From Patescibacteria group bacterium (lineage in GTDB: Bacteria; Patescibacteriota; UBA1384; UBA12157; JAENIV01): a DNA stretch of 64,000 nt. A model generated the notes under the pieces. The model was not told where the DNA came from. It was given only the letters and a program-made list of their open reading frames with translations, and searched no databases. Positions 4,443 through 61,641 of this stretch are shown one piece after another (within the stretch, counting starts at the first letter, position 1; each line of letters begins with the position of its first letter). The translations under genes were made by a program, and so were the position numbers. Where the stretch lies: contig JBEKTP010000001.1 in assembly GCA_049515915.1 (NCBI GenBank), positions 6,855 to 70,854 on the forward strand, written 5' to 3'.

Positions 4443-4763
4443 ATGGCCGATGAGAAGACCTACGCGCAAAGACTGGCTGAGACCCAAGCGATGTCCACCG
4501 AGGAGATTCACGAAGCCATCAGAGCGCGCGAGGCAGCTGGAAAACCCTGCGGCATACTCCACAGGGTATTAGCGGATCGTTCCGACGAGCGGGCCAAAAC
4601 GCTCGGTATCGATCCGCCCAGACCAGGAAGAAAGACGTATTCTGAACGGTACTCCGAGACCAGCTCCATGTCTACAAGCGAGATCAGAGCCAAGATCGCA
4701 GAACGCAGGGCTCAAGGCAAGGAGGTCGGTGTCCTCGAGCGCGTTCTTTCAGAACGTGAGTAG
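4443..4763 (+). CDS. high-GC hypothetical protein with internal tandem duplication
   Basis: 106 aa. Two ~45-aa repeats are present (MSTEEIHEAIRAREAAGKPCGILHRVLADR / MSTSEIRAKIAERRAQGKEVGVLERVLSER). GC is about 57% against about 35-40% flanks. It has a strong RBS (GAAGGAGGTGA) and its own terminator. Confidence 0.5.
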   Translation: MADEKTYAQRLAETQAMSTEEIHEAIRAREAAGKPCGILHRVLADRSDERAKTLGIDPPRPGRKTYSERYSETSSMSTSEIRAKIAERRAQGKEVGVLERVLSERE

Positions 4764-26772: not shown

Positions 26773-27519
26773 ATGACAGCGTTGCCATGCCGTAACCGAA
26801 CTTCAAGCGAGGTCAGAACAGGTATGTTGGAAGCCGACTGCCTCTTCGTCCCACTGGGTCTACCGACGATCAGCACGCCGGCCGTCATGGCGGTAGCAGT
26901 CAAGACGCTTTTTGCCCATGACTTCATCCCGCGCGTCGATTTGGCCCTCAAGACCGAGGTCCTCCAGGCGGCGATCAAAGCCTCTAGACGCACAGACACT
27001 CAGACCGCTCGCCCCGTCATCGCGGCTTTCAACAACATCAACTTCGCCCACAACCAGCTCGCGGTCTGTTTGGGCTTCGACATCATCGAATACGAGGGGG
27101 CGGAGCCGGACGAGCTCGCACCTTTCGCCGCGCTCTGCGCCGAAGCCGGCGTCTACGGACTGGTTCACTTCAATGATCCTGGCGTCCTCGAACTCATGTT
27201 GGCGTCAATCGAGGATCCCAACCTCCTCGCCGCTCACCTCGACTATAACGAATGCCGCCTGAAGGACTATGCCGTCGCCTATCGCCGCGTCGGCCTCGAG
27301 CCTAAAAGCCAAATCGCCATCGTCAGCTGCCCGATTACCTGGGGGACCAGTTGGCAGCGGATTATTCGCCACCAATGCGGCTTTGAGCTGATCCCGGGAC
27401 TCGTCTTGACCGATGTCTTCGCCAAGATCAACCCCAACGACACCGAAGCGATCAAGCACGCCATCGCCAATGCGCGTGAACACTTTACGCCCTTCACTGG
27501 GCACGAACCCGTCGGATGA
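26773..27519 (+). CDS. high-GC hypothetical protein (248 aa), likely horizontally acquired
   Basis: It is the longest ORF in a ~60% GC island (26.75-27.56 kb) inside a ~40% GC genome. It has a perfect promoter and RBS upstream and a terminator downstream. No family was recognised. Confidence 0.5.
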   Translation: MTALPCRNRTSSEVRTGMLEADCLFVPLGLPTISTPAVMAVAVKTLFAHDFIPRVDLALKTEVLQAAIKASRRTDTQTARPVIAAFNNINFAHNQLAVCLGFDIIEYEGAEPDELAPFAALCAEAGVYGLVHFNDPGVLELMLASIEDPNLLAAHLDYNECRLKDYAVAYRRVGLEPKSQIAIVSCPITWGTSWQRIIRHQCGFELIPGLVLTDVFAKINPNDTEAIKHAIANAREHFTPFTGHEPVG

Positions 27520-40225: not shown

Positions 40226-40972
40226 TTATTCAGTTTTAAGGCCGATGATGGCCGCCGAGACCGGTGCTTTTTCTTGTTCAAGCCGATGACTGCCAAAGAC
40301 ACCGTTATGACAGACCGGGCAAATCTGACTGATTTCGATATTTTGATGGGTTATCCCTGCCTCGTTTAAATCACTCCGGATGGCCTTCCTTAAATCAACA
40401 TAACCGTCTTTATTGCGGACTAAAGAGGCCATCGGATAAAGCCCCAGAAATTTTTTTAACACGTCCCGGCCAATCACAAAATGTCTCTGACAAATCCCCG
40501 GGGCAACGCCAATCATGAGACTTGGCGGCTCGGCCCCACTCATTTGTAAACCATGGATTAAATTGGTCACGATGCCCGCCATAATCCCCCGCCAGCCGGC
40601 GTGAGCGATGCCAATAACATGATTGAGCGGATCATAAGCCAAAATCGGGAAACAATCGGCGGCGGTGACCATCAAATTTAAGCCCCGAGCAGTGGTGACC
40701 AAGCCGTCTACTCCTTTAATATCGTCAGGGGCGGTGGCGCCTTTTCCCTTTTCAGCTAAACCGACGGCGATCACTTTAGCGCCATGAACAATTTCGGGCA
40801 TGACCACCTCGGCCAGATTTAAACCCAACTCTTTAAGAAAATGCTGCCGGTTTTGGATGACTTTGCCCTGCTCGCCCCGGTAAAAACTCATATTGCCGTC
40901 AGCGCGATTGGAAATCCCCTGGCTGATTTCCGGAAATTTGGAAAATAAAGAAAACTTAAAACAAGATTCCAT
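40226..40972 (-). CDS. pgeF: peptidoglycan editing factor PgeF / YfiH (DUF152) family
   Basis: 248 aa with the conserved His/Cys segments of the YfiH laccase-domain family (GIAHAGWRG, CPVCH). It is located inside the dcw cluster. Confidence 0.7.
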   Translation of the reverse strand: MESCFKFSLFSKFPEISQGISNRADGNMSFYRGEQGKVIQNRQHFLKELGLNLAEVVMPEIVHGAKVIAVGLAEKGKGATAPDDIKGVDGLVTTARGLNLMVTAADCFPILAYDPLNHVIGIAHAGWRGIMAGIVTNLIHGLQMSGAEPPSLMIGVAPGICQRHFVIGRDVLKKFLGLYPMASLVRNKDGYVDLRKAIRSDLNEAGITHQNIEISQICPVCHNGVFGSHRLEQEKAPVSAAIIGLKTE

Positions 40973-41090
40973 TACGTTTATTGTATCAAAATGACCGCTT
41001 ATATGGAAGAAGAAATCTTGCTGAGAGTAAAATCCAAGCTTTAAACCCAGTCACTAAGCACTGTTGGATAACCAATTGATAATTCCTTGA

Positions 41091-46306: not shown

Positions 46307-46339
46307 TTTTTCCTTTGCGGGCGGCTAGTCTTTAAGGGC

Positions 46340-46540
46340 CGGCTTGTCAGGCTTTAAAAGGCGCGGCGGGCAGGGCGCTGGAAAGAGATTAGCAGCCAGT
46401 GCCCCTCCTTAATTTGCTTTAAGCTTTCGCCTAGAGCAAAAATAACCAATTTTGTTTTGCCCCACGCCGGCCCAATATGGGACGGGCAGGGCCTGAAAAA
46501 TATTTCCGTGCAGCCTTTTGTTTTACCTGGCTGCTAATCT
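46340..46540. ncRNA. candidate structured RNA / palindromic element between mraZ and rsmH (unidentified)
   Basis: The GC-rich 300-nt spacer is atypical for an mraZ-rsmH junction. A perfect 14-nt inverted repeat AGATTAGCAGCCAG / CTGGCTGCTAATCT lies at ~46388 and ~46519. The segment GGGCAGGGC is duplicated. An inner hairpin GCAAAA...TTTTGC is present. Confidence 0.25.
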
Positions 46541-46610
46541 TACAAGAAAGTTTATTCGAGATGGAAAATGCGAGCTGTTAGCGCTCTCTCATTTCCCAGG
46601 CCGAATTTTC

Positions 46611-47042
46611 CTACACCCCCAGATCCATCATGTGTTTTGAAATTTCGTCAGTCTGCTTTTCGGTCGTTTCCTTAAATTTCTGCCAAGCCGATTTCTCCCA
46701 GATCTCTAAACGATTATACAAACCGGCGATCACCGCCTCCCGTTTTAAGTTTGCATATTCCTTAAGATATCCCGGTAGAAGCGCCCTTCCTTGAGAGTCA
46801 AATTCAACCTCCATCGCCCCCGCCAGCATTAATCGGGAAAAAGCGCGTGATTTCGGATCGGAAATTGGCAACTGGGCCAACTTCCCGGCCAAATTTTCCC
46901 ATTCTTTTTTTGTAAAAACCCAAAGACATTTATCCAAACCGCGGGTAATGACCGCCCCACCCCCAAGTTCCCTTCTCATTTTGGAAGGAACAGCCATCCG
47001 ACCTTTCGGGTCGATTATATGTGTGTATTCTCCTATGAACAT
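46611..47042 (-). CDS. mraZ: transcriptional regulator MraZ
   Basis: 143 aa with two MraZ repeats carrying DxxxR (DPKGRMAVP, DSQGRALLP). Confidence 0.85.
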   Translation of the reverse strand: MFIGEYTHIIDPKGRMAVPSKMRRELGGGAVITRGLDKCLWVFTKKEWENLAGKLAQLPISDPKSRAFSRLMLAGAMEVEFDSQGRALLPGYLKEYANLKREAVIAGLYNRLEIWEKSAWQKFKETTEKQTDEISKHMMDLGV

Positions 47043-47060
47043 TGATCTATCTTAGAGTTA

Positions 47061-47086
47061 TCCCCAGCTTCCCTTGGTTTTCCCCA
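47061..47086 (-). promoter_or_regulatory. candidate MraZ operator (three TGGGR direct repeats at ~10-nt spacing)
   Basis: The minus strand reads GTGGGGAAAACCAAGGGAAGCTGGGG between the predicted promoter and the mraZ start. Confidence 0.3.
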
Positions 47087-47115
47087 CTTTTATCCACAAT
47101 TTGACACTCTGGATT

Positions 47116-47144
47116 TATCTTATGTCACCGTGATACCTAAGTCA
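47116..47144 (-). promoter_or_regulatory. putative mraZ/dcw promoter
   Basis: On the minus strand, -35 TTGACT (47144..47139) and -10 TAAGAT (47121..47116) are separated by a 17-nt spacer. Confidence 0.4.
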
Positions 47145-47184
47145 ACATTTTGTCAAGACCTTCAAGCTCAAAAACTCCCCAAAA

Positions 47185-48330
47185 CAAAAAAACACCTCTA
47201 AAAAGAGGTGAAGCCGGGAGCCGCGGAGGAGGCTCCCGGCGTTCAAGCGAACCAGTATGTGGCTACCGGTTCGCAAAAGTTGGGTAGTGCTCGGCAGCAA
47301 TCATGGCCGCCGAGCGGAAGGGTCGAAGAGAGCTTGGATAAGACCCCAAGCTATCTCCGCCAGGCGGTGAGCGGGCGCGCGAGATCACGAGCAGTCGATT
47401 TGGGACCGGTCGCGGGCTCAACCTCTGATGAAACAAGGTTTCGCCCAGCAAACACGCGGCCGAAAGACAAGGCTGCTCGGGCAACGCTCCCGTTTCGGTG
47501 AAGCCCAACAGAGCGCCGGTCAAAACCGGAAAAGCCACGACCTGCATCATGCTCTGTCCCCCGATTACGCCCAAGATACCACACCGAACCGACCAATGAA
47601 CCTTCCATCAAAAGTGCAAGGAGAGGAGCCGCTCAGGACTGTTCATCTTAGAACGGTACTTACCGTTACATTTGCTGGTACTTAACTGTCACTCAGCCGC
47701 AACTAGAGTCCTTCCACCCATAACGCCGTTCGACTTTCGAACAGCTCCTCTAAATCTATTTAACCGCAAGCTTTTGGCAGCGTCAAGACTCTCAACAAAA
47801 AAGATCAAGGCTCGAGACGAATCTCGAGCCTTGTAAATGAAACGGCTTTTGGCCGGGTGATTTTTCGGACTCCGCAGTGACACTGCGGAGTCCGAGTACC
47901 CAGAACCCAGATACATAGGAGATACGGGATCAGGGCGGTGTCCACCGAGGGGGACTAACTGAACGGTGGACACCTTGGCGCGGGAGGGAGTTGCGCTGAT
48001 GAGGGCACTAGGCCTTGGCGATGCCAAGACCCAGTGTAAAGGGAGGGTGCCAGTCCGAAGAAGATCGAGAATGTTTCCCGGCCGTCCGGTCTCCACGGAC
48101 AGCCGGGTTAAAGCAGGAGGTCGCATGACGAGTTGGCTTCGGACGCTGACACCGAAACCAACCCAGGATGAGAGCACTTCCGGCCCTTAAGGGGACCTAA
48201 GGAACCGGAAGTGTCATGAGAGGGAGACGACCCAACGATGGTTAGAAAAGAGCAAGGAGATTGCGTTTCGAGACATTCGATCGCCTCATCTGCCGTTTCT
48301 TCGCTTTTTTGGGTTTGCAAGGATCAGCCT
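47185..48330 (-). ncRNA. GC-rich ORF-free structured region; candidate ncRNA gene(s), unidentified (tmRNA and RNase P RNA were considered but neither was established)
   Basis: About 1.15 kb of ~58% GC with only spurious overlapping ORFs in all frames. It is densely packed with perfect hairpins (GGGAGCC..GGCTCCC, GGACTCCGCAG..CTGCGGAGTCC, GGTGTCCACC..GGTGGACACC, AAGGCTCGAGA-TTCG-TCTCGAGCCTT, CTTCCGG..CCGGAAG). Minus-strand hairpin+U-run terminators lie at ~47800 and at 47185-47210 (CACCTCTTTTTAGAGGTG+T7). Only a weak resemblance to the RNase P segment UAGAUGAAUGACUGUCC was seen (UAAGAUGAACAGUCC at ~47640, minus strand). Confidence 0.3.
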
Positions 48331-48408
48331 TTTGTCACCTCAAAACGCAACCTCAAATCGATAATAACTCAAAAAGTAAGCGCTTGTCAATAAGAACAAT
48401 AATTCTTT

Positions 48409-49728
48409 TTAGAAACTGCCTAATTTCCCAAATAAATAATTTTTGAGTTCTTTGATTGCCACCCGCTCTTGTTTCATCGTATCACGGTCGCGAACGGTGA
48501 CTTTGTTGTCCTTTTCAAAATCGATCGTCACGCAAAATGGCGTGCCGATTTCATCTTGCCTTCTATATCGTCTACCGATACTGCCCGATTCATCATATTC
48601 GATCTCTCCCCAACAAGTTTTGAGGTCTTGATATATTTCTTGGGCTTTGTCCGATAATTTTTTAACTAAAGGTAAAACCGCCACTTTGACCGGCGCGAGT
48701 TTGGGCTCTAGATGAAGAATGATTTCACCACTTTCCGATTTCTCCTCCGGCTCCCCTCGCCCACCCGAGATTTCCTCAAATGCGTCGCAAATTATTGCCA
48801 ACATCAGACGCTCGATCCCTAAAGTTGGTTCAACGACATACGGCAAGATTTTTTCTTTCGTTTCTTCGTCGAAAAATTTCAGATCTTTACCCGATGCTTT
48901 TTCATGAGACGATAAATCAAAATCAGTGCGGTTAGCCACGCCGGCCAGTTCTTTTTTGCCAAAGGGAAAATTATATAAAATATCAACAGTTCTTTTTGAA
49001 TAATGCGCTAAAGATTCCTTCGGGTGCTCGTGATGTTCGATTGATTCTTTTTTAATACCAATTGATAGAACAAACTCCTCCCAATCTTTCAGCCATTCGT
49101 CGAAAGCCTTTTCATCATCGCCTTTTTTAACAAAATATTCGATCTCGGCGATTTCAAACTCGCGGACTCGAAACAAAAAATCTTTCGTATTGATTTCGTT
49201 GCGAAACGATTTTCCAATTTGGGCAATGCCAAATGGCAATTTTTGACGCGAGATTTCCATCACCTGCTTAAAATCGGTCAACATACCTTGAGCGGTCTCG
49301 GGTCTTAGATAGGTCATCGATTCATCATTCTCAATCACCCCGACATTAGTCTTAAACATCGGATTAAACTGCCTGGCCTCGGTGAATTCGTGCTCACCGC
49401 CGGCAGAACATTTTTCTTTGGGCAAATCATCGGCTTTGAAACGCTGATGGCATTTCTTGCATTCAACCAGCTTATCAATAAAATCTTTTTCATGCCCGCT
49501 CGCCTGCCAGACTTGACGATTCATTAAAATCGCCGATTCAAGGCCGACGATATCATCGCGGTCTTCGACAAACTTTTTCCACCAAAGTTTCTTGAGATTA
49601 TTCTTGAAAGTGACGCCATACGGCCCAAAATCATAAATCCCCGAAAGGCCACCATAAATCTCCGAACCCGGCATCACAAAACCCCGTCTTTTCGCCCATG
49701 AAACAATTTTTTCTAAATTCTTTTCCAT
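48409..49728 (-). CDS. glyQS: glycine--tRNA ligase (dimeric alpha2 type)
   Basis: Class II aaRS N-terminus (FVMPGSEIYGGLSGIYDFGPYG). The start was chosen at MEKNLEK (49728) with an AGGAG RBS. The track start 49776 would overlap recO. Confidence 0.9.
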   Translation of the reverse strand: MEKNLEKIVSWAKRRGFVMPGSEIYGGLSGIYDFGPYGVTFKNNLKKLWWKKFVEDRDDIVGLESAILMNRQVWQASGHEKDFIDKLVECKKCHQRFKADDLPKEKCSAGGEHEFTEARQFNPMFKTNVGVIENDESMTYLRPETAQGMLTDFKQVMEISRQKLPFGIAQIGKSFRNEINTKDFLFRVREFEIAEIEYFVKKGDDEKAFDEWLKDWEEFVLSIGIKKESIEHHEHPKESLAHYSKRTVDILYNFPFGKKELAGVANRTDFDLSSHEKASGKDLKFFDEETKEKILPYVVEPTLGIERLMLAIICDAFEEISGGRGEPEEKSESGEIILHLEPKLAPVKVAVLPLVKKLSDKAQEIYQDLKTCWGEIEYDESGSIGRRYRRQDEIGTPFCVTIDFEKDNKVTVRDRDTMKQERVAIKELKNYLFGKLGSF

Positions 49729-53975: not shown

Positions 53976-54094
<119 letters not shown>

Positions 54095-54388
54095 TTTAAA
54101 TTACGAGATATTTTTTTCAGTGTCTTAATAGTTGTTCTAACCTAATACCTCCAAAATGGAGAAAGGTTTTCTCGGTCTATTAGTACTCCTCGGCTGAACA
54201 TCTTACGATGCTTACACCTAGAGCCTATCAACCCTGTGGTCTACAGGGAACCTTAACGAAGTCTAATCTTAAGGCGGGCTTCCCGCTTATATGCTTTCAG
54301 CGGTTATCCCAACCGAACATAGCTACCCAGCAATGCCCTTGGTAGGACAACTGGTACACCAGAGGTTCGTCCGCTCCGGTCCTCTCGT

Positions 54389-54691
54389 CAAGTGCATCCT
54401 TTATTTCTAAAGGCTTAGACTATATCTTCATCCGCCAGGTGGCGGAGTCGGCGTGTGATACCAATATAATTCGATTACCATCAAATTGGTATCTCGATCT
54501 TTCGATCTCAGTCGTTACGGGGTCACCCCGATTAATATCAGGGGACTTCCCACGGTATTCCCTTTCAAAACTTATGGTTTTTTAAGTTTCTTGAAATTTC
54601 ATTAAACCATAGATTTCATGAAGGCTCCACCGTTATTAGCCGAATTTTCAATCCCGATTACTCGGGAAAGTAGCAATGCGCTTTCGCGCCT
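54389..54691 (-). mobile_element. group I intron 1 in 23S (ORF-less, about 300 nt), inserted between CCUAGU and ACGAGAGGACC (sarcin-ricin loop region)
   Basis: The exon junction was reconstructed from flanking conserved 23S sequence. The group I core S-element GATATAGTC (plus agactatatc at 54417-54426) lies ~30 nt before the 3' splice G. It shares the internal GGGGTGACCCCGTAACGAC element with introns 2 and 3. Confidence 0.65.
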
Positions 54692-54750
54692 ACTAGGAGC
54701 AGACCCTCTCAAACTTCAACGATCACAGCAGATTAGGACCGAACTGTCTT

Positions 54751-55441
54751 CGCTTTTATCCATTATTACTAATGGTGCAGACTATATCTTCTTCCTTATC
54801 ATCCACCGATGAATAAGGAGTTGGCGTGTGTTCCGATAAATCGGAACTCAAGCTGATTGCCTAGATCAGCTATCAGTCGTTACGGGGAAAGATTATTTTC
54901 TGTCAGATACTTTAACACTTGTGGTGTGAAATTTTTCCGTTTCTTTGAAAAGTTATATTTAGCAGTGTTATCAACAAGTTGGCAAAAACTAATAAACTGT
55001 TTCTTTGATGGTTTTGGGGGTATTTTTTCAAACAGTAACAAATTTTGCGCTTGTTTCTTCTTTAAACGTAGATAAGGTAAAATCTTATGAACAACCGTGA
55101 TTACCGGCATAATTCCAACAATTGTGTATTCCGCCATGTTATCATTTCTTGTTCGAATGTAACCTGTCTTTAATAAAGATTTTAACCATTCAAGATGTCT
55201 AATATTTTGCTTGTGTTGATAGAAAACGAGACTTAATCTGATTTGAAAACCAAATTTATAGCCTTTTCTTTTTATCAACTGTGCCATTAGACATCCATCT
55301 CCATCTAAAAACCCTGCAATATAGGCTTTTATTTCTTCTGACATAATAAATCTTTCTTCCCACGGTATTACCCTCTTAACATTCGGTTGAATTAAGGAGG
55401 GCTTCACCGTTATTAGCCAAATTTATTATACAATTACTCGT
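54751..55441 (-). mobile_element. group I intron 2 in 23S with LAGLIDADG homing endonuclease ORF, inserted at GAACGUCGU^GAGACAG (I-CreI-type L2593-like site)
   Basis: The flanking exons match E. coli 23S ~2580-2610. S-element GATATAGTCTG is at 54778-54789. The 3' tail CACCATTAGTAATAATGGATAAAAGCG is similar to intron 3. Confidence 0.7.
54880..55407 (-). CDS. LAGLIDADG homing endonuclease (single-motif, I-CreI-like) encoded in 23S group I intron 2
   Basis: 175 aa with the motif YIAGFLDGDGCLMAQL. Confidence 0.8.
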   Translation of the reverse strand: MKPSLIQPNVKRVIPWEERFIMSEEIKAYIAGFLDGDGCLMAQLIKRKGYKFGFQIRLSLVFYQHKQNIRHLEWLKSLLKTGYIRTRNDNMAEYTIVGIMPVITVVHKILPYLRLKKKQAQNLLLFEKIPPKPSKKQFISFCQLVDNTAKYNFSKKRKNFTPQVLKYLTENNLSP

Positions 55442-55549
55442 ATAAGTCGCAAATAATTTACGACGTTCTGAACCCAGCTCGCGTACCCTTTTAATTGGCG
55501 AACAGCCAAACCCTTGGGACGTACTTCCGCCCCAGGATAGGATGAGCCG

Positions 55550-55868
55550 ACATCGTACCTTAATCCATAATTACTTATGGTGTAGACTATATCTTTATCC
55601 TACAACCGGACTTTAGGCATAAAGCCATATCCTTGGTTTTTTGTAGTAGGAATCGGCGTATTATTTGACTTTTTATAACTACCAAAGTCAAATCTCATCT
55701 TTCGATTCAGTCGTTACGGGGTCACCCCGATAGATATCGGAGGACTTCCCACGGTATTGCCCTTGTTGATTCTTATATTTTACCGAACATATTACGAACA
55801 AACAATAGGGGTTCACCGTTATAAGCCGATTTTTGGTATAGAATTACTTCTATAGCACCCCAATGTTA
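55550..55868 (-). mobile_element. group I intron 3 in 23S (ORF-less, about 320 nt), inserted in GGCACCU^CGAUGUCGG (L2500-region site)
   Basis: The exon junction was reconstructed. S-element agactatatc is at 55575-55584. The 5' region GGGGTTCACCGTTATAAGCC is similar to the intron 1/2 5' regions. Confidence 0.65.
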
Positions 55869-56372
55869 AGGTGCCAAACCGCATCGTCTATGTGGGCTAT
55901 TGGATGCGATCAGCCTGTTATCCCCGGAGTAGCTTTTATCCGTTGAGCTCTGGCCATATCACTTTGTGCCAGAGGATCACTAACCCCAACTTTCGTTGCT
56001 GCGCGACTTGTAGGTCTTGCAGTCAAGCTGGCTTATGCGTTTGCACTATCGCTCTGATTTCCATACAGAGCTAGCCAACCTTTGGGCGACTCCGTTACAA
56101 TTTAGGAGTCAACCGCCCCAGTTAAACTACCCACCTGACACTGTCCCTTCGTTCATTACGAGGGTTAGAATCAAACTCCCAACAGGATGGTGTTACACTT
56201 TCGTCCCCGAAGGGACTCCCATCTGCTCTATACAATTGAAAATTTAATTCAATATCAAGCTATAGTAAAGCTTCACGGGGTCTTTCCGTCTTGCTGCGAT
56301 TAACCGGCATCTTTACCGGCATTGTAATTTCACCGAGCCCTTCCCAGAGACAGTTTTCAGATTGTTATGCCA

Positions 56373-56404
<32 letters not shown>

Positions 56405-56425
56405 ATTCGCTACCATAGAACGGTT

Positions 56426-57137
56426 CATTTGTGTTTATGGCTGATTTTACAGCCCTGTATGTCTCCATACAGATCGGACTATATCATCCCACCTTGCGGC
56501 GGGTCTAGCGTATAGTCTCTGAGGATTCTCCATAAATATCCTTAAAACAATATTTTCTTGTTCTGCCAGCACCAACATTCAATTTCTCTCTTAAGAAAAC
56601 TATCTCTCGCAAACCTTTATCTGTTAAATGCTCACCATTCATTAGATTGGCTATCTGACAAAATATTTTGAAATTTTGCTTTTTACTTGCGGAGAAAAAA
56701 TTAAACTTTCTAAAGAATGGGATTATTTTTTCTTTAATCATCGCAAAGTTACAAACGTCATATATAAATAATCCATCTTGTCTCCGTTTAATTTTTCCGC
56801 AACCTAAATATCGTTTCATTATGGTGAGAATAGTTATATCTCGTTGAGAAACATTAAAGCAAAGACACACTTGCCATTTTTGCTTGTAATCTTGTTTATT
56901 TCTCAATGAAACATTAAAACTTCCTTCACCATCAACAAATCCTGCAAAATAGTAACCTATTTTATCAGGAATTTGTTTGAGCCAGTTTTCGCTCACTTGA
57001 CCTCCTTTGGAGCCTTTCCTGCTGATTGTCTCTATTCTTTGGATTTTTAGGTATAGTTAACTATTCTATAACCTACCAAAGACTTAACAAGATTTTCCAG
57101 CATATAGCTAGATTTTATAACTACTAACCGTTATTTA
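56426..57137 (-). mobile_element. group I intron 4 in 23S with LAGLIDADG ORF, inserted at GGUAACUAU^AACCGUUCUAUGGUAGCG (L1917-region site)
   Basis: The spliced junction restores the conserved CGTAACTATAACGGTCCTAAGGTAGCG-like sequence. S-element GATATAGTCC is at 56476-56485. Confidence 0.7.
56505..56996 (-). CDS. LAGLIDADG homing endonuclease encoded in 23S group I intron 4
   Basis: 163 aa with the motif YFAGFVDGEGSFNVSL. Confidence 0.8.
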   Translation of the reverse strand: MSENWLKQIPDKIGYYFAGFVDGEGSFNVSLRNKQDYKQKWQVCLCFNVSQRDITILTIMKRYLGCGKIKRRQDGLFIYDVCNFAMIKEKIIPFFRKFNFFSASKKQNFKIFCQIANLMNGEHLTDKGLREIVFLREKLNVGAGRTRKYCFKDIYGESSETIR

Positions 57138-57860
57138 ATAGTTACCGCTGCCGTTCACTAGGGCTTAAGTTCAAGCCTAGCTCTGACTTGCGTCAGAAGA
57201 TCAGCTCTCCCCGTAACCTACTAGCACTGGGCAGGCATCAGCCCCTATACATCCCCATAATGGGTTCGCAGGGACCTAAGTTTTTGCTAAACAGTCATCT
57301 GAAATACGTTTGTTGCAGCCACCTTACGGTGGCAGTGCTTCTCCCGAAGTTACACACGCTTTTTTGCCGAGTTCCTTTGGGAAAGTTAGCTCGATCACCT
57401 TGGTATCCTCTACCCATCTACCTGAGTCGGTTTGCGGTACGGGTGCTAAAAGGAGTGGATTACAGCTTTTCTCGTCACCGCTTCAGCCTTACCTTTCAAC
57501 CATACGATTGGCAGACCTCTACGATGCGTCACTGTAATATAATCTTTTAACAGTCGACGAATATCAACGCCGTGTCCATCGCCCTCGCGGGCTTAGGCCC
57601 GACTAACCCCCCGCCGATTATCGTTACGGGGGAAACCTAAGATATTTGGTGGGCAGGTTTCTCACCTGCCTAATTCGTTACTCATACCAACATTCTCACT
57701 TCTTGGCCGTCCAGCAAACCTCACAGTTTGCCTTCACCCAGCCAAGAACGCTCCCCTACCACTCCAGTAAACTGGAGTCCGCATCTTCGGTGATAGTTTT
57801 GAGCCCCGATGAATTTTCGGCGCCACAAACCTTGACCAGTGAGCTGTTACGCTTTCTTTA

Positions 57861-57891
<31 letters not shown>

Positions 57892-58451
57892 TTGTCTAAG
57901 GATTGTGACATCCTTTTCCACTTAAACTATACTCTGGGACCTTAGATGGCGGTCTGGATTCTTTTCCTTTTGACTGTGAAGCTTAGCCCCCACAGTCTGA
58001 CTGCTCGAAAATCCAAAACGGAATTTGGAGTTTGATTAGCCTTCCGGCTTTCGCCGGAATAAGCCATCCAGAGCTCTACCTCCGAATTTTAACTTCGAGC
58101 GCTATACCTAAATATATTTCGGGGAGAACCAGCTATTTCCGGGTTCGATTAGCATTTTACCTCTATCCTCAAGTCATCACATAGCTTTGCAACGCTATAG
58201 CGTGCGGGCCTCCCTCACAGCTTTCGCTGGAGTTCACCCTGCTCAAGGATAGATCACCCGGTTTCGGGTTTAGTGTATGCCACTAGCGCCCTTTCGGACT
58301 CGGTTTCCCTATGCCTTCCCACAAAAAGTGGTTAAGCTAACGCGACATACAGCTAACTCGTTGGTTCATTCTACAAAAGGCACGCCGTCACCCTTGCGGG
58401 GCTCCGACTCCTTGTAAGCATATGGTTTCAGGTACTATTTCACTCCCCAAT

Positions 58452-58501
<50 letters not shown>

Positions 58502-59842
58502 GGAAGATATTTAGCCTTAGGAGATGATCCTCCCATCTTCCTGCTGGATTTCACGTGTCCAGCAGTACTTGCCTTTACGTCTCAAAGAGACGCAAAGTAA
58601 TGATGGCAGTAAAAGTTTACTTTTCGCTTACGGGACTGTTACCCTCTTTGGTCGTCCTTTCCAGGTTCATTTAGCTAAATAAACTCACTTACCATCATCA
58701 GGCTGTTCCCTTTTCGCTCGCCACTACTAAGGGAATCACATATTGGCGCAAACCTTTCGGCTCGCGCGAATATCTCACTTTTGGTGAGTCTTGTTTTCTT
58801 TTCCACGCCTTACTAAGATGTTTCAGTTCAGGCGGTTCCCTTCCGGTTCCACCTTCCCGACACGAAATGATTGTAAAGGCCTTTTAATTTGGATCCTATA
58901 ATTTAATAGATCCTAAAGGCTCATCTCATGCCGGGAATGCGAAACCGGACTGTCGCCTCTTCGGCGACCGGGTTGCCCCATTCGGAAATCTTCGGATCAA
59001 AGGATGTTTGGCTCCTCCCCGAAGCGTATCGCACGCCTACTGCGTCCTTCATCGGTCTTCCATGCCTAGGCATCCACCTTATGCTCTTATTGAAAACCAA
59101 ATATTAGGTAGAACAACTACCAAGACACTGAATACTTCACTTGTTAAAGTTCAATGAGATAGTCGGATCATCAGATAATCTGATATTTTAAACCTCATCA
59201 ATTAATTCTCTGAATATCTGACCATCTCTAAACCAAAAACCGCCTTTCGGCGGATGAAACACAACTCAAAATTTGGATTTAAGTTTAAGTTTATCCGTCG
59301 ACCCCCTCGAATAATTTGTTGCTAATATACATCAGAAATGACTCCTTATATTCGTCTGAATTAATTTTAACAAGACTCAATAAATTTGTCAAGCAAGGTT
59401 AAAAGTGAGGTGGCGCCCGCCTTGATGGCGGGCGCCGTAGAAATCATGGCGAGAAGCTTGTATTTGTGATTTGTAGGTCTTGGTGGATACATCTGATACG
59501 TATAACAAGCTTCTCGCCAATACTTTGAGACGAAACGGTCGGGGGCCTGTAGTCAGGCCCCCGACCTCCCGAGGCCGGAACTGTCAAGCTCAAGTCAGGA
59601 AAGCACAGTCGGGGTTAACCCGGTCCGCTCTCCCGAAGAGCGTCTGACTGCGATCCGATCGCTCGGGCCCGCCATCAACCAACAACTCGAGAGGGCGGGT
59701 TTAGCGAACGAAGCAACAACTGCCCGGCCCGTTTCTGTTTTTGTGGGATGATGGCCTCATTCAAAGACACAAGTAATCACATTATACAAGTTTTTTGGCT
59801 CGTGTCAAGATAGACATTATTTCTCTTTAAAACACAAAAAAC

Positions 59843-61563: not shown

Positions 61564-61568
61564 TTTTG

Positions 61569-61641
61569 TGGACCGTGCCGGATTCGAACCGGCGACCTCG
61601 ACATTGCAAATGTCGCGCTCTACCAGCTAAGCTAACGGCCC
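61569..61641 (-). tRNA. tRNA-Ala (anticodon UGC)
   Basis: The minus strand reads GGGCCGTTAGCTTAGCTGGTAGAGCGCGACATTTGCAATGTCGAGGTCGCCGGTTCGAATCCGGCACGGTCCA. It has the G3:U70 identity pair, a TGC anticodon in a 7-nt loop and a GGTTCGAATCC T-arm. Confidence 0.85.

Follow-up and report, generated by a model that had tools for sequence, protein, structure and literature searches.

The DNA stretch analysed here (the window) comprises 64,000 nucleotides (nt) of a Patescibacteria genome (GenBank assembly GCA_049515915.1, contig JBEKTP010000001.1) and contains, in a 1366-nt spacer between the minus-strand genes glyS and mraZ, a GC-rich island at positions 47185-48330 that most likely encodes two folded RNAs of ~560 nt, designated RNA1 and RNA2, which match no known family. 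The host is a Berkelbacteria-like member of the candidate phyla radiation (CPR), the named best matches of the window MraZ being Berkelbacteria proteins, and nearly all genes of the window lie on the minus strand. On the upstream side, glyS (48409-49728/49776, minus) encodes glycyl-tRNA synthetase (GlyRS), most likely from the ATG at 49728, which gives a 439-amino acid (aa) protein with an exact match on many public contigs; the alternative start listed among the open reading frames (ORFs), TTG 49776 (455 aa), has no exact record. On the downstream side, mraZ (46611-47042, minus) is preceded by a promoter (47145-47117, minus) with 10-nt-phased GTGGATAAAA/GTGGGGAAAA boxes, and the region around this promoter (47058-47160, minus; boxes TTGTGGATAAAAGTGGGGAAAA ... 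CTGGGGATAA) is the sole part of the spacer that is conserved across all relatives. The phased boxes fit MraZ operator repeats, and they also resemble DnaA boxes. A replication origin at the spacer, suggested by the TTATCCACA boxes, was rejected, as neither GC skew nor gene orientation switches there.

The island is 100% identical across three independent assemblies, on longer contigs that carry the same GlyRS, and 20 further places with mostly the same neighbouring genes are reported at the gene level, with their island sequences uncompared. The island looks stable in the compared assemblies, and appears to be neither an assembly artefact nor a polymorphic insertion. Exact-protein matches to the window MraZ were confined to identical contigs; strain heterogeneity, to which their break points inside the island had pointed, was dropped in view of the three longer, identical contigs.

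The island has a GC content of 55.6%, whereas the window as a whole has 42.3% and the flanks have 41-45%. A first-pass annotation of the same DNA, made by a model from the letters alone, had quoted a value of about 58%, which fits the two lobes of the island and not its full span: measured over 200 nt, GC peaks at 0.62 (47200-47500) and 0.605 (47900-48100), with a dip to 0.47-0.49 at 47600-47900. The same annotation had described the segment as free of ORFs. Mechanical ORFs of 162 aa (47689-48177, minus), 103 aa (47263-47574, minus) and 97 aa (47208-47501, plus) are in fact present, but none of them is gene-like. The longest ORFs contain no Pfam domain, and no credible Shine-Dalgarno (SD) sequence precedes the ORFs of the island, save a weak GGGGG ahead of the ATG at 47550. 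The three-base periodicity (period-3) z-score is -0.6 to +0.5 for the whole island and its ORFs, against 2.6-23 for mraZ, glyS, rsmH and two GC-rich plus-strand genes of the window. The 162-aa ORF matched only its own cluster among 5.8 billion proteins, and the 103-aa ORF matched only itself and three repetitive proteins, regarded as noise, among 1.84 billion representatives. In tblastx comparisons between islands the promoter alone matched, in all six frames, with no frame-specific similarity. On the strength of these tests taken together, the island is non-coding.

The same results bear on the proposal of a foreign origin, in which the island would be a frameshifted pseudogene left by the decay of high-GC protein-coding DNA; tblastx matches across frames had been named as its sign. 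Its GC content, 13 points over background, and the presence of acquired GC-rich genes in the genome favour such an origin. The missing periodicity, the missing protein homologues and the promoter-only, six-frame tblastx signal all argue against it, and a decayed gene would not be expected to show the excess of structure described below (z = -12). The proposal is largely refuted, and is considered highly improbable.

Predicted transcription units and their folds

Four perfect Watson-Crick hairpins are present in the island (47213-47240, 10 bp; 47806-47833, 12 bp; 47865-47895, 14 bp; 47937-47974, 11 bp), compared with 0.30 ± 0.53 in 200 dinucleotide shuffles, and at least five more hairpins are near-perfect (inverted repeats I2, I3, I7, I10 and I15). 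The hairpin excess reported in the first-pass annotation is real, although the count of at least six perfect hairpins given there becomes four perfect ones of 10-14 bp plus several near-perfect ones, and, with regard to the GNRA/UUCG-like loops mentioned alongside them, one loop is UUCG, in the terminator at 47833-47806. Folding is likewise far beyond chance and is stronger on the minus strand, where the z-scores of the minimum free energy (MFE) are -11.76 (47796-48355) and -5.34 (47185-47760), than on the plus strand, where they are -7.13 and -3.65 for the same segments. The segment is therefore structured, as had been proposed, and the strand on which it folds best is that of its neighbouring genes.

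The predicted RNA1 (47797..48354, minus) is ~555 nt long and contains 31% C. Its candidate promoter (48361..48390, minus) consists of TTGACA (48390-48385), an 18-nt spacer and TATTAT (48366-48361), agrees with the consensus at 11 of 12 positions and lies 19 nt past the glyS stop codon. A promoter scan of the region returned two sites like this one against 1.7 expected in shuffles, and the promoter call for RNA1, based on sequence resemblance, is weak when taken alone. At the other end is an intrinsic terminator (47797..47833, minus) formed by a 12-bp perfect stem (I8) with a UUCG loop, followed by AUCUUUUUUG. The MFE of RNA1 is -250 kcal/mol, and none of 100 shuffles was as stable. The predicted fold is a GC-rich hairpin array joined by C/U-rich unpaired linkers; an analysis of unpaired probability placed CCUCCU, CUCCCUUUA, CCCUCAUCA, AACUCCCUCCC and UUAGUCCCCCU in unpaired segments. 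Among the unpaired C-rich motifs predicted for the two RNAs, GUCCCCCU is another. A possible 5′ domain (48257..48354, minus) would be closed by a 16-bp helix (I3) between 48354-48339 and 48272-48257 and followed by UCUCCUUGCUCUUUU. All pairs of this helix are standard, and it is part of the MFE structure of the isolated first 106 nt; modelled in this way, the closure of the domain is tentative.

Directly after the RNA1 terminator lies the probable promoter of RNA2 (47757..47786, minus), composed of TTGACG (47786-47781), an 18-nt spacer and TAAATA (47762-47757). It was read by eye from the sequence, since it falls below the -10 rule of the promoter scan and is unlisted there, and relatives carry a promoter at the matching place relative to an AGGAGG/GAGGAG start. 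The predicted RNA2 (47186..47750, minus) is ~565 nt long and hairpin-dense, with an MFE of -249.7 kcal/mol; the plus strand folds 36 kcal/mol worse. Its 5′ domain (47623..47750, minus) is a multi-hairpin structure of 128 nt closed by a 13-bp helix, P1 (GAGGAGCUGUUCG at 47750-47738 with UGAGCGGCUCCUC at 47635-47623, minus), in the MFE structure of the isolated domain, and is followed by UCCUUGCACUUUU. Near the 3′ end, a hairpin loop with the sequence UCCUCCGC (47230-47223) is predicted to be unpaired. The terminator (47186..47210, minus) has the form CACCUCU-UUUU-AGAGGUG, a 7-bp stem, followed by U7; some 40 nt separate it from the mraZ promoter farther downstream. The terminator tail, GGUGUUUUUUUGUUUGGGG, recurs in the relative L133 (93% MraZ identity). 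The island had been predicted to contain two minus-strand terminators and two RNAs of about 500-600 nt ending before the mraZ promoter. Both terminators were found (47833-47806, with a UUCG loop and U6; 47210-47193, with U7), and the units that they end, of ~555 and ~565 nt and each with its own promoter and terminator, correspond to the RNAs proposed.

The earlier statement that the RNA could not be identified held when all Rfam models were searched. With Rfam 15 at gathering score, the whole window contains rRNAs, one tRNA and an intron, and nothing within the island; a cmscan search of 46900-48600 with all 4227 Rfam 15 families, lax filters and E ≤ 10 returned only snoRNA and miRNA noise (E 3-6), with no covariance-model match to OLE, GOLLD, ROOL, HEARO, raiA, group I or II introns, 6S or SRP. 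The outcome was the same for the relatives L047 and L048. Among the papers searched, nothing relevant turned up on RNAs of this sort, whether from Berkelbacteria and Patescibacteria or from the region preceding mraZ. The weak RNase P-like segment that had been reported did not survive these searches. The words concerned (GAAAGUC, GGGUGGAAGG, CGGUAAG, AAGAUGAACAGUCC and CGGCUCC) occur in the right order, all within the ~128-nt RNA2 5′ domain (47623-47750), and could be taken to indicate a divergent housekeeping RNA (RNase P RNA, tmRNA, 6S or SRP) that Rfam models miss in CPR genomes. No RNase P or other such model matched at E ≤ 10 in the 1.7 kb searched, ARAGORN found only a tRNA-Ala in the window, with no Rfam tmRNA match, and none of the words occurs in the RNAs that hold the equivalent position in seven relatives (L047, L048, L050, L058, L059, L065 and L069). 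In addition, the domain closed by P1 is only ~128 nt long, and the RNA cannot be aligned even where MraZ is 85-95% identical; an essential catalytic RNA would not diverge to this extent. RNase P RNA was rejected on these grounds, and a missed housekeeping RNA of any of the four kinds, being largely refuted, is scarcely credible.

If the two units are transcribed as predicted, transcription of each would start from a separate promoter of the sigma-70 type and stop at a strong intrinsic terminator, and both RNAs would fold into arrays of GC-rich hairpins. With the 5′ terminus tied up in a helix and the 3′ terminus in a terminator hairpin, the RNAs would be shielded from exonucleases on both sides and would be expected to be abundant and long-lived. 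They may act in trans, through base pairing of their many unpaired segments rich in C and U (CCUCC, CUCCC) with G-rich sequences, for example SD sites, or may alternatively titrate an RNA-binding factor. Transcription, stability and a trans-acting role are thus properties that we infer for RNA1 and RNA2, and the specific mechanism through the C/U-rich segments is unlikely to be correct in the form given here.

Turnover in the slot between glyS and mraZ

Related loci were collected as those of MraZ homologues, by exact-protein look-up and by a metagenome scan that returned 80 loci (numbered with the prefix L). The homologues form a graded series, and the relatives compared have MraZ proteins 73-87% identical to that of the window. 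The nearest MraZ relatives (93-95%) are on contigs that end 230-360 nt upstream of mraZ, so that none of them supplied a close orthologue of the island. When GTDB genomes were searched with GlyRS, the best identity was 53%, and none of 38 loci had anything island-like. The gene order RecO-GlyRS-(membrane ORF of ~100 aa)-spacer-mraZ is conserved. Within this order a GC-rich island is present in L047-L052, L058, L059, L065, L069 and L135 and absent from L060-L062, L064, L067, L073 and L075, and across 37 distinct loci GC-rich 200-nt segments are concentrated in the 1.5 kb upstream of mraZ. In relatives the slot holds zero to two GC-rich cassettes of 270-1500 nt, each with a promoter and a terminator; the islands measure ~270 nt in L048 and L050, ~460 nt in L047, ~780 nt in L058 and ~1100-1500 nt in L065 and L135, where they consist of two tandem units. 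The units of the window and the cassettes of the relatives alike have their own promoter and intrinsic terminator, lie on the mraZ strand and are placed between glyS, or a small membrane ORF, and the mraZ promoter. What can be claimed most safely is conservation of the slot and of the cassette architecture, but not of the sequence.

Two types of cassette were distinguished. Type A cassettes, found in L047, L048, L050, L058, L059, L065 and L069, are non-coding and have a 5′ helix P1 of the form GGAG(G)CYGUCC ... GGACGGCYCC, which closes a domain of 80-130 nt. The P1 of RNA2 aligns with the P1 strands of these seven RNAs; over all eight, pairing within P1 amounts to 93% and both partners differ in 5 of its 13 pairs. 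The covariation score was reached by none of 500 column shuffles, and slid registers were all 36-56% paired. A covariance model built from the 5′ domains of the relatives, without any window sequence (R1), found nothing in the window with default filters. With filters off, its best window match was a hairpin of RNA1 (48073..48108, minus; ACCCGGCUGUCCG-(7 nt)-CGGACGGCCGGG), which scored 17.5 bits (rough E 6e-4 in 4 kb) and whose core, GGCUGUCCG/CGGACGGCC, is identical to P1 of the L048 and L050 RNAs; other hairpins of the island scored 5-11 bits. A motif-pair match in L107 was rejected, as it lies inside a secretion-ATPase gene. A 17-mer of RNA1 (AACUCCCUCCCGCGCCA; 47976..47992, minus), predicted to be in a loop, is identical to one in an extra module of L047, with a blastn E of 0.66, so that the match could be chance; its four exact matches in 2.9 million viral contigs were treated as background, with no expected count computed. 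Sequence comparison suggests, with moderate strength, a link between the window RNAs and type A.

In type B cassettes a GGAARGGRGGUGAG leader precedes an ORF that is SD-led and hydrophobic at its N-terminus (155 aa at 343-810 of L135; 79 aa at ~429-668 of L063; 67 aa at ~1999-2202 of L082; 51 aa at ~2227-2383 of L065). Their products are possibly small membrane or secreted proteins, or else the ORFs reflect gain and loss on structured RNAs. Related Berkelbacteria thus have other cassettes in this slot, some of them P1-type and non-coding, others with ORFs for putative small membrane proteins. Such ORFs in the same slot raise the question of whether the window island is the remnant of small-protein cassettes of this type, in which the ORF was lost and a structured untranslated RNA was left. 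The start of RNA1, UUGAGGUGACAAAAGG, resembles the GGRGGUGA leader, including that of the ORF-less second cassette of L135, and RNA2 contains a weak GGGGG-N6-AUG with a hydrophobic start, MMQVVAFPVLTGALLGF. The window island has no SD-led ORF of the type B kind, however, and there is no period-3 signal anywhere in it, no homologue of the 95/103-aa ORF besides itself and no frame-specific similarity of the window to type B cassettes; moreover, the shortest P1-type relatives (L048 and L050) cannot encode anything in ~270 nt. This origin is regarded as quite unlikely.

The islands always border the mraZ promoter and the MraZ boxes on the upstream side, on the same strand, and this constancy could instead reflect a role in cis on mraZ and the dcw operon, by insulation from glyS read-through or by regulated read-through into dcw. 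Relatives have an extra GTGGATAA-type box just after the cassette terminator, which would be in keeping with this; the sequence noted at that place is an inverted TTATCCACA. One terminator would suffice for insulation, however, making 1.15 kb of structured RNA unneeded; the two terminators of the window are both strong (12-bp stem and U6; 7-bp stem and U7), and several relatives with the same mraZ promoter have no island. A role in cis is very unlikely.

Several other features were observed around the slot and farther along the same loci. A Y1 (IS200-type) transposase, a free-standing GIY-YIG ORF and an insertion sequence (IS)-like end occur in relatives (L048 1698-2261; L051 2097-2351; L046 1-140), the IS-like end having AGGTGACATT repeated beside the mraZ promoter, and the glyS neighbourhood is an insertion hot spot. 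The spacer between mraZ and rsmH (46307-46610) is 304 nt long with a GC content of 0.49, and measures 175-340 nt in relatives. Between ftsI and murE, on the opposite strand, relatives carry a conserved GC-rich gene of 219-247 aa without a Pfam match (L047 8774-9433, L048 8681-9355, L049 7578-8264, L050 7620-8363), which forms the only other GC-rich cluster in the 37 loci and is absent from the window, where the gap is 46 nt.

The island as a probable pair of RNA genes

The interpretation favoured here, held with somewhat better than even confidence, is that the island consists of two tandem, independent genes for non-coding structured RNAs on the minus strand, and RNA1 and RNA2 are best read as lineage-specific RNAs whose accessory slot, upstream of the dcw operon, evolves fast. 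The principal competitor of this interpretation is that accessory GC-rich DNA, either selfish or without function, makes up the island, derived from foreign or nested palindromic insertions in a permissive hot spot, in which the transcription signals are incidental. The content of the slot is swapped between close relatives and missing in some, the GIY-YIG ORF, Y1 transposase and IS-like end are found in the neighbourhood in relatives, the genome holds other GC-rich, probably acquired genes, and perfect palindromes of 10-14 bp are a commoner feature of repeats than of structured RNAs of long standing. On the other side, the hairpins of the island occur nowhere else in the window, nor in plasmid or phage collections; no second copy of the units was found in the window, in 610 kb of related loci, in plasmids or in phages. 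Furthermore, each unit begins immediately downstream of a promoter and stops at a strong terminator, as is true of all cassettes of the relatives; the clearly better folding of the minus strand is not predicted by a palindrome at the DNA level; P1 shows compensatory change across lineages; and the population carries the island in a fixed, unvarying form, as far as the compared assemblies represent it. Selfish or non-functional DNA is therefore judged unlikely, while retaining an appreciable share of the probability.

Several observations weigh against the interpretation of the island as two RNA genes. Long perfect hairpins combined with rapid turnover would also fit non-functional or selfish DNA. 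In nhmmer, sensitive blastn and tblastx comparisons with all fetched loci, only the mraZ promoter and the single 17-mer were recovered. Covariation was found only in helix P1 of the related RNAs and not in the window's own sequences; under R1 the P1 of RNA2 scored <5 bits and was not recovered, the best window match being only the 17.5-bit RNA1 hairpin, and beyond its training set R1 found no further copy in the 610 kb of loci. The 16-bp 5′ helix of RNA1 has a probability of ~0 in the full-length equilibrium fold and costs 9 kcal/mol if enforced. The CCUCC motifs number three against ~1.3 expected from a composition estimate, which is not significant. Finally, RNA1, RNA2 and a further unit at 59.4 kb share no more 9-mers than shuffles do; their status as paralogues was rejected for this reason, and by sequence the three are not demonstrably one family. 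The candidate is well documented; it is not a discovery.

The unit at 59.4 kb (59405-59790, minus) is a third orphan unit of ~380 nt, GC-rich, ORF-free and predicted to be promoter-driven, with a folding z-score of -9.6. It immediately precedes the promoter of the 23S rRNA, matches no Rfam family credibly, has no sequence relation to RNA1 or RNA2, and was counted as support for the interpretation of the island as RNA genes. With this unit, at least three such units are present in the window (47186-47750, 47797-48354 and 59405-59790), and they might represent an unrecognised class of species-specific, very stable GC-rich RNAs in accessory hot spots of CPR (Berkelbacteria) genomes, with a turnover as fast as that of surface or effector genes; action at the host-cell or phage interface, as decoys, sponges or exported RNAs, is one possibility. 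The existence of such a class is a speculative extension to which little probability is assigned.

CPR (Patescibacteria) genomes are tiny, and their non-coding DNA is expected to be under strong pressure. The ~1.5 kb of promoter-driven, folded non-coding sequence predicted in 64 kb would therefore suggest RNA functions unseen by annotation and by Rfam. The slot between glyS and mraZ provides a fixed address at which such RNAs could be collected across Berkelbacteria, and a collection of this kind would serve to test the conservation of structure and to trace cassette gain, loss and conversion to small-protein genes. Should the RNAs prove to be junk, the locus would still document a recombination or insertion hot spot beside the cell-division operon.

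The remaining features of the window concern the rRNA genes and several protein genes. The 23S rRNA match within 53977-59103 (minus) extends over 3726 nt for a model of 2925 positions, with a group I intron at 55564-55878 and a LAGLIDADG ORF at 56505-56996 as insertions; a second LAGLIDADG ORF (54880-55407) occupies the interval that separates the end of the 23S match from 5S. Two protein genes separate 23S from tRNA-Ala (61568-61641), so the rRNA operon is split. Two GC-rich genes (57-59%) at 4443-4763 and 26773-27519, on the plus strand and opposite to their neighbours, contain no Pfam domain and look acquired; one encodes a 106-aa protein with two similar halves, and the other encodes 248 aa with a period-3 z-score of 23. 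An apparent gap of 788 nt at 40303-41090 proved to be a real gene of 248 aa.

Comparison with known systems

Among known extragenic elements, repetitive extragenic palindromic (REP) sequences and bacterial interspersed mosaic elements (BIME) are, like the island, GC-rich, hairpin-dense, extragenic and variable, and a Y1-type transposase is found near the island in one relative. The island differs from them in that no unit is repeated within it or in 64 kb, and in that its units have their own promoters. To RNase P RNA the likeness consists of a domain helix that joins the ends and of words resembling CR-I to CR-V, and RNA2 fails every test made. Known 5′ stabilisers include 5′-terminal stem-loops and SD-like sequences near the 5′ end of the STAB-SD type. 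In their first 20 nt, the predicted transcripts either begin with GAGG/AGGAGG held in a helix or look similar to GGAGGUGA; the parallel goes no further than this resemblance.

RsaE/RoxS and other Rsa RNAs of Firmicutes are base-pairing small RNAs with C-rich loops that contain UCCC motifs. By analogy, the unpaired CCUCC, CUCCC and CCCCC predicted in loops and linkers of RNA1 and RNA2, together with a promoter and terminator of their own, would be comparable; RNAs of the RsaE/RoxS type are, however, ~100 nt long and conserved, whereas RNA1 and RNA2 are ~560 nt long, with a motif count at chance level and no Rfam match. A further parallel is offered by OLE, GOLLD, ROOL, HEARO and raiA. These RNAs are conserved in sequence and structure over many genera, whereas RNA1 and RNA2 are unalignable even between close species and have no covariation for their fold. 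Like RNA1 and RNA2, they are hundreds of nucleotides long, strongly structured, non-coding and independently transcribed (a property that is predicted for the window RNAs), their GC content stands out in an AT-richer genome as that of the island does, and their function was obscure at discovery. RNA1 and RNA2 match nothing described, and in kind they belong with these orphan large structured bacterial RNAs.

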